Below are positions 1 to 37,630 of a stretch of 64,000 nucleotides of DNA, in pieces (the first letter of the stretch is position 1; each line of letters starts with the position of its first letter). Where the stretch lies: positions 4,648,421-4,712,420 of the forward strand of contig CM119265.1 of the NCBI GenBank assembly GCA_051294375.1, written 5' to 3'. Source of the stretch: Paraspadella gotoi. Its lineage: Eukaryota > Animalia > Chaetognatha. Position numbers and translations under genes: made by a program. Below the pieces are notes generated by a model. It worked only from the letters and a program-made list of their open reading frames with translations. It made no database searches and had not been told where the DNA came from.

Positions 1-1272
1 AGAGTGGTGGAAAAAGAAAAGCGGAAAGAGAAGGAAAATAAAATAGAAAGGCAAAACTAGAAAGGTGACAGAGAAAGTTTAATCGAAATTATTCAAAGCG
101 AAAAAAAAAAACTTCGAAAAGTTGAAAAGAAAATTAAAAAACCTTTTGTTGAGAAAGAATCAGACTTTTAAGGGTCGACAAGACAAGAATCATCTTGACC
201 CCGAGTCGGTTTCGGCCCTTGACGTGAGAGTTTTGCGCGAGCGCGAGAAATGAGCTTCTTAATCTTCGCGAACAAAATCTCTCTTCAAAGCGATGTGATG
301 ATTCGTTTTCCACGACAAAGTTGGCAGAATGACTTATCTTTTTAAACTGAGCTTGTTATCCTTGTACCCTCGTATCTTTTATGATTCCCCGATTTAATTA
401 AACTACGACTACCATTTTCGATGTCGTTCTTGACCAAAAACTCATTCAAATAATTAGACTGACCCGACGTGACCCGTGTGCCCGCAGTGACCTCCATCAT
501 GGCATCGACTCGGGCCTATCAACCACAACAACTACAACAAAATGATCAGTCAAGTCTTTATAAACGCCACGATTTGTCCAGCGATCATTGACCATCGACT
601 CTGTAAGAGATGCAGAGGCGAGATCTTGATATCATAACGAAAATAACAACTTCGTGGATATGATTAGAAAGAAACAGAAATTCATTTGGATTTGATTTTT
701 GTCTTTGAGTTATCAGTTTTCGTTATTTCGACCATAGTCACGTCGTCGTTCCGCTCTTTCCCCTTAACGGTCACAGATTTTCGTCCCACATAGTACATAT
801 TTCCAACCGCCATGATTGTTCACGAAAGAGCGTCTTTGTTAGCCACGACAATTTCCTGTCGCCTGGCGACTCTCGAGGCCACGCCCCCGGCGACGGATCA
901 ACCTTCACCTTTCCCCACTCGGAGAAAGTCCAACTAGACAATGAACCTTTGACCGACTTTGTCCTCGAGGCATAACGAGACCGTCTATAAACCCAACGAC
1001 CGGTCCGTCTTTGTCCTAAGCAATCCATGTCCTTCGAGGACATTTAGCCTCCCGGTTCTAATCGGATATCGAGACTCGGGACAAAAAATATATCCATTAA
1101 TTCCCCGCTAATCGTCGCGGGTGAAAAAAAGGGACGAAAGTCGAAGAGAATGAAAAGAGAGAGAGAGAGAGAGAGAAAGACGATATTAACCGAGATCGAT
1201 GCATACGAAATGTGTCCGCCAACTCATTTACGTAGTTATGACTTTGGCGAAAGTCGAACCTAATGGATTCTC

Positions 1273-1313
<41 letters not shown>

Positions 1314-1472
1314 TCCCTCTCTATCTCTTTTCTCTCTTTTTCTCTTATCCGTCCATTGCACTGACCTCAAAACTGGTCATTGGTCATTCGCCGTTGATCT
1401 TTCTTCGCCCCTGAAAAGAAAAAATCTCTTTCCCTCCCTCCGCCTCTCTCTCTCCCCTTCCCTTTCTGACAC

Positions 1473-1605
<133 letters not shown>

Positions 1606-2251
1606 AACTCTTCAACGCTGTCCAAGGAAATGACCTAATGAAAACAAGCTTAGAAAAAGAGGAGAAAGGCCGAGGCCAAAGAGTTTTAAACCGACAGAGT
1701 GAGTCCTCTTTAGCTCGTATGTATAAATAAGAAAAAAATCCTTTTTTTTTTGTAAAATAACTATTAATAGAAAAGATATTGAATAAAATTGTTGAGGCGG
1801 AAATCTCAAAGCTGCTTCTCCGTCAAACGAGAAAAAGAAAAAAAAAGTTTTTCTTCTTCTATATTTTATTTTTATTTTTTATTTTGAAGAAGAATTTTTT
1901 TTTTTTATTGATGTCGTTTGCGCTCAATTATGCATAACTTGTCGCTTCTCTTTGCACGAGAAGATCCTAAGATTTCATCGAAGGAAGAGGGGGAAAAAAA
2001 TCAAGAAAAAAAAAGATGAATAAATGCTTTGAATAAAAAAATGTCTGTTTGTGGATATGAGAGCGGGTGCTACTGTGGATAAATTTGCGGGGTTATCTGT
2101 GGATGTTTTAAGGAGAGAGAGAGAGAGAGNNNNNNNNNNAGAGAGAGAGAGAGAGTATAATGAGTTTTAATCAAGTTAATTAGATCTCGCCAATTTTGAA
2201 AAACGATCAGTAATTTCATTTAAAAATTTCGCTCTCTAGAAATAAAACGAC

Positions 2252-3274
2252 ATGCTTCTTGTGAAGGTAAAAAAAAACGATTTTGTTCATGCCAAAATTA
2301 ACAAAACATAAATAATTTTATGCAAATCGACTTTAGGCGCCAACGTTTGTTTTTCTATTGGCCGTGGTTATCTGTGTGAATTGCCAGGTAAAGCGTCACT
2401 TTGTAATTTTTTTAAAACTCAAGGATATATAAATAAATGATTTTAATATTTTTGTTAGGCTTGTGAGGTAATGATATTTTAAAAAGTAAATTATTTTGAT
2501 TTAAGTAATTTCTGTAAATCTCTGAATTTTCCAAAGTCGCAATTGACCGGAATCGCCGAAAAATGCGCGGCCGGTGACGTCGCCCCTTTCGAGGCCCTCG
2601 AGGCTTCAGACGGCGCCGCCGCCGTCCTTGACGCCGTTAAAGACGCCGCTATCCGCTCCTTCGGGGGCGTTTCGTGTCTCCACCTGGCGGCGAAGAACAA
2701 CCGCGTCGCCCTCGTGGCGCTTCTTCTTCGTCTCGGCGTCAATCCCAACATCCGCACCTCCATGAACCGAACGCCACTGCACCTGGCCGCCTTGCACGAC
2801 GCCTACGACGCCATCCGTCTCCTTGGCAACGCGTCCGGCGTCGAGATCGACGCCCGCGACGTATTCGGTCAAACGAGTCTTCGCATTGCCGGCTGCAATC
2901 TGACGACCATCGACGCCCTCTTGGCGCTCGGAGCCGACGCCAACGTCGCTGACAAGGATTTCTCCACGCCTCTCATCGAGGCGGCCTTCTTTGGGTGCGA
3001 GAAGCTAGTGGCGCGCCTCCTGGACGCCGCCGGGGCGAACATCGAAGCCGCCACGAGATGGGGCGAGACGGCGCTACGTGTGGCGATTCGTCAGAGGCGC
3101 GCGGATGTTGTGGAGGTGCTGTTGGCCAGGGGCGCGAGTCTGGAGGCCGCCAAGAGATCCAATAGAGAGAGATATAATTTCGCATCCGGGATGAGGGATT
3201 CCAACATCCGGGAACTCATCGAAGCTGCGACCCCACCTGATGTAGAAGACCAAGACGAAGGGGCCATCGAGTGA
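2252..3274 (+). CDS. Ankyrin-repeat protein 1 (~5 ANK repeats) with predicted N-terminal signal peptide; model join(2252..2266,2337..2387,2459..2467,2537..3274), 270 aa
   Basis: ORF 2543..3274 has ANK motifs (SCLHLAAKNN, RTPLHLAALHD, STPLIEAAFFG, ETALRVAIRQR, LLARGAS) but no in-frame ATG before the first repeat (upstream in-frame stop TAA at 2480). Three phase-0 GT-AG introns (2267-2336, 70 nt; 2388-2458, 71 nt; 2468-2536, 69 nt) give the in-frame N-terminus MLLVK|APTFVFLLAVVICVNCQ|ACE|SQLTGIAEKC. The ankyrin call is very secure; the exon model is inferred. Confidence 0.9.
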
Positions 3275-3506
3275 ACTTTGGATCGAAGAACGAAATTTTC
3301 TGAGATAATTATTAGTTAATTACGAAATAATTGTAATTGACGAACTGAGCTCGAGGTCTTTTCTTTCTGTTCGTTTCAGGGATTTCAAAGCCAAATTTTA
3401 CCTTTTATCAACTGAACTATTTTCCGGTTTTTTTTTTCAGTTGTCATTTAAAAATCCTACAACTTACAACTGAATTAATTTCGAAAGATATCTTAGGCTA
3501 CCAATA

Positions 3507-4440
3507 ATGAAGGTGACGATTAGGAACTTATCTTTTTATTATTCCCTGACTAATCAAGTTTTTTATTTACGCAGCGTCAAAATGTGACAGCCGGTGTTTT
3601 CGTTATCGTCATCATTCTTTTCGGAGGATGTCAGGTGGGAGTGATTTGTTTTTCACTCTTCCAACAGAGTCTGTTTTACTTGTAGTTGACATGAGCGAGT
3701 GTCCTTACTTCCGTCTTTAGTCTCTTCGAATGTCGTTGTCCATGTTCTCCAACTGTCTCCACGGTCGCATCGACGAAGTTCGCTCCTTGGCCGAGACTCA
3801 CGGCCCGAAGGCCGTCGCTGCGGCGCGGGATAATTTGGGCAGCGACTGCCTGTATCTCGCGGCAGGCGGCAATCACGTGGCTCTGATGGAGCTGTTGTTG
3901 TCTTACGGCGCCAACCCGATCGGCATCGGCACTCCACCGCTCCTCCAAGCCGCGCAAGAGGGCTCCGTCGAGGCCATGAGATTTTTGCTGAACCAAACCG
4001 GCGTCTTCACGAACGCTTCCGATTGGCGAAAGAAAACGGGTCTCCATCGGGCGGCGTGGAGCGGCAATGCGGCCTCTATCGACTTTCTCCTCGCCGCCGG
4101 CGCCGACGTCAACGCCGAAGATAGCGAGGGAAATACGCCGCTCCACTTGGCGGCCCGCTGGGGCAACGCCGCCGCTCTGGCGAGCCTCTTAGCGGCGCCG
4201 GAAATCGACGTCGACGCTGTGGATCTAGAGGAAGAGACGCCACTAAGGAAGGCGATTCGTCGGAAGAATGCCGGCGTCGTGGCGACGCTGTTGAGAAACG
4301 GCGCTAGTCTAGACGAAGCCAAGGATTGCACAACACGCTGGCGGGAATTCGACGCCGGGATGGCCGATGAGGCCGTGAGAAGAGCCGTGGAGGCGGCGGA
4401 GGCGGCGGAGGCGGCGGAGGAGGTGATTGAAGAGGAGTAG
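3507..4440 (+). CDS. Ankyrin-repeat protein 2 (~5 ANK repeats) with predicted N-terminal signal peptide; model join(3507..3512,3575..3634,3721..4440), 261 aa
   Basis: ORF 3730..4440 has canonical ANK repeats (KTGLHRAAWSGN, LLAAGADVNAEDSEGNTPLHLAARWGN, ETPLRKAIRRKN). Phase-0 introns 3513-3574 (62 nt; branch-like CTGACTAAT, TTTATTTACGCAG acceptor) and 3635-3720 (86 nt) give MK|RQNVTAGVFVIVIILFGGCQ|SLRMSLSMFSNC. Confidence 0.9.
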
Positions 4441-34862: not shown

Positions 34863-37630
34863 TGCAGAGAAAGAGAGAGAAAGCGTTACGCAAAACCAGA
34901 GATAAGAGGATGAGGTGGATTTAAACGGAATTTATGATGTTTCGTCAATATTATCTTCCCCCTGACGACGGTGTCGACGACGTTTGCGACGACGACAATA
35001 ACGACGACAACTCGAGACGCGCATTCTCCTCGGGGACTCGGGAGCGACGCCGAAAAAAGGGCGCCGGGCATCAGGAGGCGGCGTCGCGATTCTTAACTTT
35101 GTCGCGAATTCAAAGGCTCAAATCGTTCGAGGGAAATTGTCGCCCCTTGCCGCCCTCCCCCATTTTTTGACAAAAACCTGAATTATAGAAAGGCGAGAAC
35201 GGCTGAAGCCCTAGAACCCGAAACCCAACTCGTTGCGACGATATGAAACTATTGTTCCGCTTTTCTGCTTTTCTCCTTTTCCCTAATGCCCCACCCTACC
35301 GTGCCCTCAAGATCTCCTTCCAAATTTGGGAAATATAGCTTTCACCACCACCTTTCTTAAAGATTCCCCCTTTCTCCCCTTTTCTCTTCAACGACACAAT
35401 TTTCGCTCCGTCTGCGACTTCCTTGTAACCGGTGTACCCTTACCCTGTAGCCCTATTTTTTTCTCAGCCGCAGCTGGCGCATTTTCCTCTCCGCCGCCGA
35501 CCGTTGCTTCGATAAATCGTGGGGAAGTTCCTCATGTAATCGTGTGGAGCGACGCCGCGTATCGACCCGCGCAGCCGCCGCAGCCGACGCTCAAAAGTAT
35601 TGACTGAGGAGCTTGCAACTTGCTTGGCGTCGCGTAATGCTTGACGATTATTGGCAGCGCCAATCATTAGGCAGAGCTCTAAATATTGACTAATGTATTG
35701 GCCAACTTTGGTATCGACAGCTCGCAAAACTCCAAAGTGCCCGACGTCATATGTTGAGCAGTTTCGGAAACATGGCGAAGAGCAAATTCCCTGGCGAGGC
35801 TTATCAAGGGTCCGATTGCTTTTAGTATTGCAAACAGTCTTTATCTGTTTAACGCTAGAGAAATTAACAACTCGATGCATTGTAAATCTGAGATACGGCC
35901 CGTGAATCAGTCGGCGCCCTAACATTAAAACTGACATTCAAAAACGAAATCCGTCGCCGCCATTGCACGCCCTTGCCCCCCGGCGCCGACGCCGCGCGTT
36001 TCAACGATTTTAATCGCCTCATTTTCCGCCGAATCAAATTTTCCTCGTAATCGCGCCATTTTTTTTTCAAACGCGGAAATGCGCGGGAAAATTTGGTCGA
36101 ATGGCAGAGGCGACGACAGAGGGCAGAGAGACGGCCTTTTGTTTTTTATGGTTTTGAATTAGTCGTTATATTTTTTTTTTATGGATGCATGACGACGACG
36201 ACGACGACGACGACGACGAACGATTCGTACGGTTGTTTCGCCTCGCAACGAGATCGAGTCCCATTTGCACCAAAGGGCTTTTTTTCCTTTCTGCTCTTTC
36301 CTATTTTTTTTCTCTCTTCTCATTTGGAGTCCGACTAAATAAAAAAAGAAAATTCTTTCTCTGGAACAGACGAAGCGAATTTATCCAATGACAACAGCGG
36401 TGTTCATAAAAAATGTGCTCATTGGTTGGGAATCTCTCTTCTCTCTTGACTCTCGCTCCCTCCTCTCCTCTCGCTTCTCCTCTCCCTCTCCTCTTCTCTC
36501 TTTCTCTCTCTTCTCTCCTCTCTCTTCTCTCTCTCTCTCTCTTCTCTCGTTCTTTCCGAGGTCATGCATGTTTTGCCGTTTTTTTTCTCTGTCTCCATAC
36601 AAATGCACACTTTTTTTTCCTCCCCGCGACAGATTGTGGAAAAAAACCGAAGTAGACAGAAGAGAACGTTTATGGACAGACAGAGAACAGAGACAGGCGA
36701 AAATCGCTAGACGAATAATATGAGAAAAAAAAAAACCTATTAGGAAACTGGTCAAAAAGAAATATATAAGAAGAGAAAGAAAGCTGGGAAGGAAAACTAG
36801 TTTCTTCTTCATTTCCACTTTTCTGCTCTTCTTTCCTTTTTCTCTTCCTTCTTTTTATTTCCTACGAAACTTTCTTCCCTCCTATCTTCTATTCCCTTTC
36901 CTTTTTCTCCCCTGTTCCTTTTTCCTATTTTTATCTCCCCAAAGTGTTTAATTTTTTCAGCATCACCGCAGATTCTTTCCGACTCCTCAACCTACCTCCT
37001 CCCCGCCTCCCCACCCCTTCCTCCTCCCCCCTCCTCCCCTCTCCTACCTCCATCTTCTTCTCAGAAATAAATGCGACGCCGACGTGATATAAGGGTCAGA
37101 TGCTACATTAGTAAACCTCCTTGTGGCTTCCTCGCGCATTCGATTCCTTCTCCTCTATTTTTGTCTTTTTCTTTTTCCTTTCGAGCGAAACTCCGTCGTC
37201 TCCGTTTTCGTCGCGTCGTTTTCGTCCGTCCGTTTCGTTCTTGTCGCTTTTTCGTTTACTAACCCACGAGTTGCCCATTTTAATGGACGTTCGACACTTG
37301 GGAGAGCGAAAACTTATAAAAAAGGCTTATTCGTAACATCACGCCGGGCGGAAAGGCCTTTTAAGGATAAAGGAGATTCGTTTTGAGAAGGCTCCTTGGA
37401 CTGTTTTGGACTGGCCTTGGCGCGTTAGCGGACCTTATGTACACTATGAAAATATTAGCTGCAACTGCGCAGGCTGGTGAGGCTGGCAAATAGCTTGTTG
37501 ACAAGCACTTGGCTGGGATGTTTCTTTCTTTTTTGCTTGTCTAGCTCTGATTTAACAGAACTGACTCACTTGGCTAGCTTAGAAGAACTGATGGGCTGTT
37601 ACTTATCTTTTTAGTTCACGTCCCACTCCT

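Follow-up and report, generated by a model that had tools for sequence, protein, structure and literature searches.

Transcribed three-exon ankyrin-repeat paralogs with predicted signal peptides, likely in one operon, in the arrow worm Paraspadella gotoi

Two adjacent genes of Paraspadella gotoi form a real, transcript-supported, lineage-specific pair of three-exon paralogs, each encoding an ankyrin-repeat protein behind a hydrophobic leader. They lie near one end of the 64,000-nucleotide stretch of contig CM119265.1 that was analysed (the window). The explanation we consider probable on balance is that these transcribed paralogs, likely arranged in one operon, make predicted secreted, non-enzymatic ankyrin-repeat binding proteins. 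Table 1 gives the coordinates of their features.

Transcript structures of the two genes

Four of 11 candidate sequencing runs were compared with the locus. None of the 11 is on record as RNA; X8 and X9, which come from two studies, were taken as RNA from their spliced contigs, and X3 and X5 are genomic DNA. The RNA evidence consists of assembled contigs, which drop rare variants.

A first-pass annotation made from the letters alone had drawn five cis-introns, all in phase 0, of 70, 71, 69, 62 and 86 nt. All of its exon and intron coordinates are present in the sequence, with GT-AG ends and open frames, and in both genes the introns are AT-rich versus GC-rich last exons. Three of its predicted junctions, 2266/2337, 3512/3575 and 3634/3721, were present in contigs of both X8 and X9. 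The remaining two, 2387/2459 and 2467/2537, which would include a 9-nt micro-exon in gene 1, were not seen in either run and were replaced by a direct 2387/2537 joint that skips 149 nt, giving four spliced GT-AG introns in all. None of these four joints occurred in the genomic runs X3 and X5, and X3 was continuous through the introns. Depth was zero in the bin 2406-2492 in both RNA runs. The micro-exon has flanks that resemble good splice sites and would leave introns of 71 and 69 nt in place of the one of 149 nt, and a minor isoform carrying it is possible. Together with its donor (2455-2472) the micro-exon resembles the exon 1 end and donor; it may be what is left of a small duplication, or a micro-exon that is used only rarely.

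The spliced proteins have 267 residues for gene 1 (270 with the micro-exon) and 261 for gene 2. With the micro-exon removed, the proposal that both paralogs share one exon architecture holds: a tiny exon ending in Lys is followed by a hydrophobic-core exon ending in Cys-Gln and by a large exon beginning with Ser.

Table 1. Positions in the window of the features of the two ankyrin-repeat genes, with the evidence for each
Feature	Position	Strand	Evidence
Gene 1 transcription start (A2218), initiator-like motif	2216-2221	+	5' end of X8 contig with template-switch oligo and one extra untemplated G
Gene 1 coding exon 1: ATG, n-region, final Lys	2252-2266	+	Joint 2266/2337 in X8 and X9; first AUG of the mRNA
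Gene 1 exon 2: hydrophobic core, c-region, final Cys-Gln	2337-2387	+	Joints in X8 and X9; hydrophobicity
First-pass 9-nt micro-exon with good AG/GT flanks, a minor isoform at best	2459-2467	+	149-nt skip 2387/2537 in X8 and X9
Gene 1 exon 3: five core ankyrin repeats between N-cap and C-cap, then a short acidic tail and stop	2537-3274	+	Pfam Ank families; AlphaFold pLDDT 90.5; Foldseek matches to DARPins and gankyrin
Gene 1 3' UTR, filling nearly the whole intergenic gap	3275-3436	+	X9 contig 2535-3408; X8 contig 3294-3436
Gene 2 trans-splice acceptor: poly-T tract and AG	3427-3440	+	14-nt loose end in X8; three mismatches in 3431-3510; SL2.0 match
Gene 2 exon 1: 66-nt UTR, ATG 3507, Met-Lys	3441-3512	+	RNA contigs; spliced frame
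Gene 2 exon 2: basic n-region, hydrophobic core, final Cys-Gln	3575-3634	+	Joints 3512/3575 and 3634/3721 in X8 and X9
Gene 2 exon 3: ankyrin repeats and caps, acidic Glu/Ala tail, stop	3721-4440	+	Pfam; 215 aa aligned to gene 1 at 39% identity; X8 contig on to 4745
Cysteine pair (N-cap helix and start of repeat 1), candidate disulfide	Gene 1, 2564-2677; gene 2, 3754-3849	+	Both paralogs; 0 of 65 aligned homologs

The DNA runs differed from the assembly by a C>T at 2611 (X3) and by one extra T in the poly-T tract at 3427, before the trans-splice acceptor (X5). The end of gene 2 (4387-4425) is a short tandem 9-nt repeat coding Glu-Ala-Ala, on which many unrelated contigs stack; X5 joints there skip 42 nt or step back by 36 nt, a pattern that may reflect length variation or mis-mapping. 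The window contains 20 assembly gaps (4,723 N), and (AG)n and (ACG)n microsatellites abound in it from 4700 to 64000. Searching nine of its open reading frames against Pfam gave one weak low-complexity match below the cut-off, and an Rfam search found nothing. A 157-aa open frame on the minus strand (35464-35937) has a Cys/His-bearing tail and no Pfam match; the tail recalls the end of a piggyBac-type transposase.

Transcription start, spliced leader and origin of the pair

The mRNA of gene 1 was shown to start at the cap-marked position 2218, at an initiator-like motif that we liken to the Inr consensus. Such motifs occur at 128 sites on the plus strand of the 64-kb window, about 0.2% of bases. 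At its 5' end, at 2218, the X8 contig carries the SMARTer template-switch oligo plus a single additional G that is absent from the genome; the oligo sequence is given in PMC9245221, where the extra G is counted as a cap signature.

The 5' end of gene 2 is of another kind. Its X8 contig carries a 14-nt loose end that occurs nowhere in the 64-kb window, and the contigs of both RNA runs (X8 and X9) have three mismatches within 3431-3510. These 14 nt belong to the spliced leader SL2.0 of chaetognaths (PMC2481426, Table 3), and the last ten bases of SL2.0 differ from 3431-3440 at exactly three positions, so that SL2.0 predicts the three contig mismatches. The gene 2 mRNA is therefore trans-spliced to SL2.0 at 3440/3441, with its acceptor AG at 3440, and the leader by itself makes an arrow worm the most likely source of the DNA. 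Neither this leader nor an operon arrangement was part of the first-pass account.

The stop codon of gene 1 and the acceptor of gene 2 are separated by 166 nt on the same strand. RNA covers the 3' UTR of gene 1 to 3408 in X9 and to 3436 in X8, only a few bases short of the acceptor, and a known chaetognath operon has 3 nt from poly(A) site to acceptor (PMC2481426). A working rule for chaetognath operons asks for less than 250 bp between genes together with a spliced leader (PMC12460157), and the pair conforms to it in strand, spacing and the SL2.0 on gene 2. It thus resembles the described operons in leader, orientation, spacing and the closeness of the upstream 3' end to the acceptor; in those operons ribosomal, proteasome and metabolic genes are frequent, whereas here the members are two paralogs with predicted signal peptides (PMC2481426, PMC12460157). 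These data suggest that genes 1 and 2 likely form a two-gene operon, in which one promoter would drive a two-gene precursor RNA that is cut by 3'-end formation and trans-splicing.

We think it unlikely that gene 2 instead has its own promoter and a short outron, or also starts at a copied initiator motif. It does keep the 12-nt start-site motif of gene 1, many chaetognath genes are trans-spliced outside operons (PMC12460157), and none of the X8 and X9 RNA contigs listed bridges the two genes, although such contigs are unable to show a two-gene precursor. Against a separate promoter, the 166-nt gap is almost wholly occupied by the 3' UTR of gene 1, and the SL-type mismatches are found at the 5' end of gene 2 in both RNA runs.

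The same 12 nt also bear on the origin of the pair. Their recurrence at 3444-3455 in exon 1 of gene 2 suggests a tandem duplication as the source of the pair, with a duplicated unit that extended back as far as the start site. The downstream copy would then have been captured by the SL acceptor, which lies 5 nt ahead of the copied motif. Tandem duplication is reported to be widespread in Chaetognatha.

Leader peptides and ankyrin domains

The first-pass annotation held that hydrophobic leaders are encoded by small upstream exons, and allowed that transcripts might start downstream of them. The leader exons were found in the mRNAs of both genes. In each mRNA the first AUG is the leader AUG, in frame with a purine at -3, and the 5' UTRs contain no AUG. 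The best 11-residue Kyte-Doolittle mean in the leader is 3.53 for gene 1 and 3.35 for gene 2. When the bases of the leader exons were shuffled 20,000 times, this hydrophobicity was reached in 4 shuffles for gene 1 and 2 for gene 2 (8,253 and 5,757 of the shuffles, respectively, had open frames), which places both leaders beyond chance. Both also exceed the 95th percentile (3.04) of N-terminal hydrophobicity in 252 retrieved homologs. The trait alone is not rare: 24 of the 252 homologs examined, from 270 retrieved, have a strongly hydrophobic N-terminus (at least 2.9).

Both paralogs have a hydrophobic core of about 10-13 residues and a small-residue -3/-1 site at residue 23, and this leader plan was preserved while the repeats diverged to 39% identity. 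No second membrane-length segment was found after residue 30 (best 19-residue means 1.26 and 1.25) and no KDEL-type tail, in line with what had been noted before. The mature parts are acidic, with a pI of about 5. Each has two predicted N-glycan sequons, a density of 0.82-0.84 per 100 aa that lies within the homolog range (90th percentile 0.93) and is not a significant enrichment over the homologs. Both proteins are predicted to be secreted through signal-peptide-like leaders with n-, h- and c-regions. In gene 1 the full domain is impossible without the leader, because exon 3 has no in-frame Met before residue 76.

In both proteins Pfam matches to Ank and Ank_2 were above the cut-off, and only ankyrin families were matched. 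The AlphaFold model of gene 1, built on a 67-sequence alignment, shows an N-cap with an extra helix ahead of the core repeats. With this model, the nearest Foldseek structures were DARPins and gankyrin (TM-score 0.77 for gankyrin); for gene 2, a single-sequence model was of low quality (pLDDT 60) and was set aside. Like gankyrin and the designed DARPins, the products are capped, stand-alone ankyrin solenoids of similar size, DARPins being artificial and the proteins described here natural. Gankyrin is intracellular and leaderless. Orthology with gankyrin (PSMD10) was rejected, given 23-24% identity in the structural match and the presence of a leader.

A Cys in the N-cap helix and a Cys at the start of repeat 1 are shared by both paralogs, and none of the 65 aligned homologs has both. 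Among 4,899 repeat motifs, 113 have a Cys at the second place and none has the upstream partner. A disulfide between the two is plausible.

Each paralog is the other's best match, and none of 388 retrieved homologs outscored the sister. Homolog searches returned 300 and 140 matches among 7,998 candidates each, all generic ankyrin proteins; none of the 120 matches listed exceeded 46% local identity, and orthologs elsewhere are still possible. A search of representative sequences was dominated by long multi-repeat proteins, and Atlas returned generic ankyrin clusters. The products thus appear, as previously proposed, to be ankyrin-only proteins without close relatives. No further copies were found by tblastn in the 64-kb window beyond genes 1 and 2. 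The matches span bacteria and eukaryotes, with a repeat-level identity of 30-40%, and since exon 3 is also intronless, its derivation as a cassette by gene transfer from bacteria or as a retrocopy was considered.

Proposed function and comparison with known systems

According to the explanation we favour, the leader would direct each protein into the ER, with cleavage predicted after the shared Cys-Gln-Ser at residue 23. The mature product is predicted to be an acidic solenoid of 25-26 kDa, consisting of an N-cap, five repeats and a C-cap, perhaps N-glycosylated and held by one disulfide. Lacking an anchor or retention signal, it is predicted to leave the cell. The least certain step is the last one, in which the proteins would be components of gland or epidermal secretions and their concave faces would grip extracellular protein partners. 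The two paralogs may have diverged in target.

Ankyrin repeats are mostly an intracellular fold, and an in-frame ATG (3730) lies at the beginning of exon 3 in gene 2; the products could then be ordinary cytosolic proteins made from downstream start codons, with the leader exons as UTR. We regard this as very unlikely, given the position and context of the leader AUG in both mRNAs and the hydrophobicity of both leaders, and initiation at the next in-frame Met of gene 1 would lose the N-cap and the first repeat. Entry into the ER followed by retention in the secretory pathway or on a membrane, either through an uncleaved signal anchor or as partner-held lumenal adaptors, is improbable in our view rather than very unlikely. 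The first 19 residues of gene 1 have a mean hydrophobicity of 2.53, which would suffice to cross a membrane. In chaetognaths, operon genes and trans-spliced genes tend towards broad expression, and signalling genes are under-represented among them (PMC12460157); such expression would suit a housekeeping role and is counted as a mild point against a gland role. The short hydrophobic cores, the small-residue site at position 23 in both paralogs and the absence of a KDEL-type tail argue against retention. A narrower form of the favoured explanation, in which the proteins are prey-directed venom or salivary effectors released from the head to bind a prey protein, seems a little less probable than retention. 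Arrow-worm venom immobilises copepods (PMC2857358), secreted ankyrins are predicted from insect salivary glands (PMC8207144) and latrotoxins contain ankyrin repeats (PMC4058007). Against this, the gene 1 model consists of repeats and caps only and leaves no space for a toxin or pore domain, latrotoxins have 11-20 repeats and distinctive N- and C-terminal domains (PMC4058007), and the arrow-worm venom that has been reviewed is tetrodotoxin (PMC2857358).

Ankyrin proteins with signal peptides have been predicted in other eukaryotes, and the rarity assigned to exported ankyrins in the first-pass annotation was overstated. The salivary secretome of the stink bug Halyomorpha halys alone includes 20 ankyrin proteins with a predicted (SignalP-positive) signal peptide (PMC8207144). 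Like the arrow-worm pair, these are paralogous animal proteins in which a signal peptide is predicted and a membrane segment is lacking; the 20 members have no assigned function, and their best matches are scattered over many taxa (PMC8207144). They differ in coming from a plant-feeding insect with salivary expression, whereas here two copies are found in a likely SL-type operon of a marine predator (PMC8207144). The oomycete ANK effectors of Phytophthora sojae similarly combine a eukaryotic signal peptide with ankyrin repeats, are lineage-specific and keep the fold more than the sequence, but they are pathogen effectors tested in plant leaves and belong to a large expanded family (PMC11139960). 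Ankyrin regions have also been noted in spittlebug foam proteins (PMC12911473).

The latrotoxins of widow spiders are likewise animal ankyrin-repeat proteins; they act outside the producing cell, a site that is predicted for the pair described here (PMC4058007). They exceed 1,000 residues and carry their 11-20 repeats between distinctive terminal domains, compared with 261-267 residues and five core repeats plus caps in the arrow worm (PMC4058007). Membership in the latrotoxin family was rejected on size and domains, as only ankyrin Pfam families and five core repeats are present.

Among the papers listed by a literature search, titles and abstract openings showed no report of a secreted ankyrin from arrow worms. 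The word ankyrin is absent from the main text of PMC2481426 and PMC12460157 and from three supplementary PDFs of the genome paper, whose spreadsheet lay outside this search and may bear on the question. Signal-peptide ankyrins are thus a known but thinly studied kind, as in stink-bug saliva and oomycetes, and the arrow-worm pair is a lineage-specific variant of it.

A bolder reading, which we find doubtful, is that arrow worms independently built natural secreted DARPins by joining an intron-free ankyrin cassette to leader exons and a disulfide and multiplying it in tandem. The products would be diversified binders whose targets are prey or microbes at the surface of the body; the locus would be an operon being born, in which the old start of the duplicate was replaced by an SL acceptor 5 nt upstream.

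The locus would be a small example of tandem duplication feeding a gene into a trans-spliced operon, and annotation based on open reading frames would overlook both leaders. Genes 1 and 2 provide concrete candidates for the protein component of what arrow worms secrete; the venom reviewed for these animals is tetrodotoxin (PMC2857358). If secretion is true, the pair would be a clear-cut natural instance, from a free-living animal phylum, of a repeat fold of the cell interior being put to use as an extracellular binder; its leader exons are supported by transcripts.
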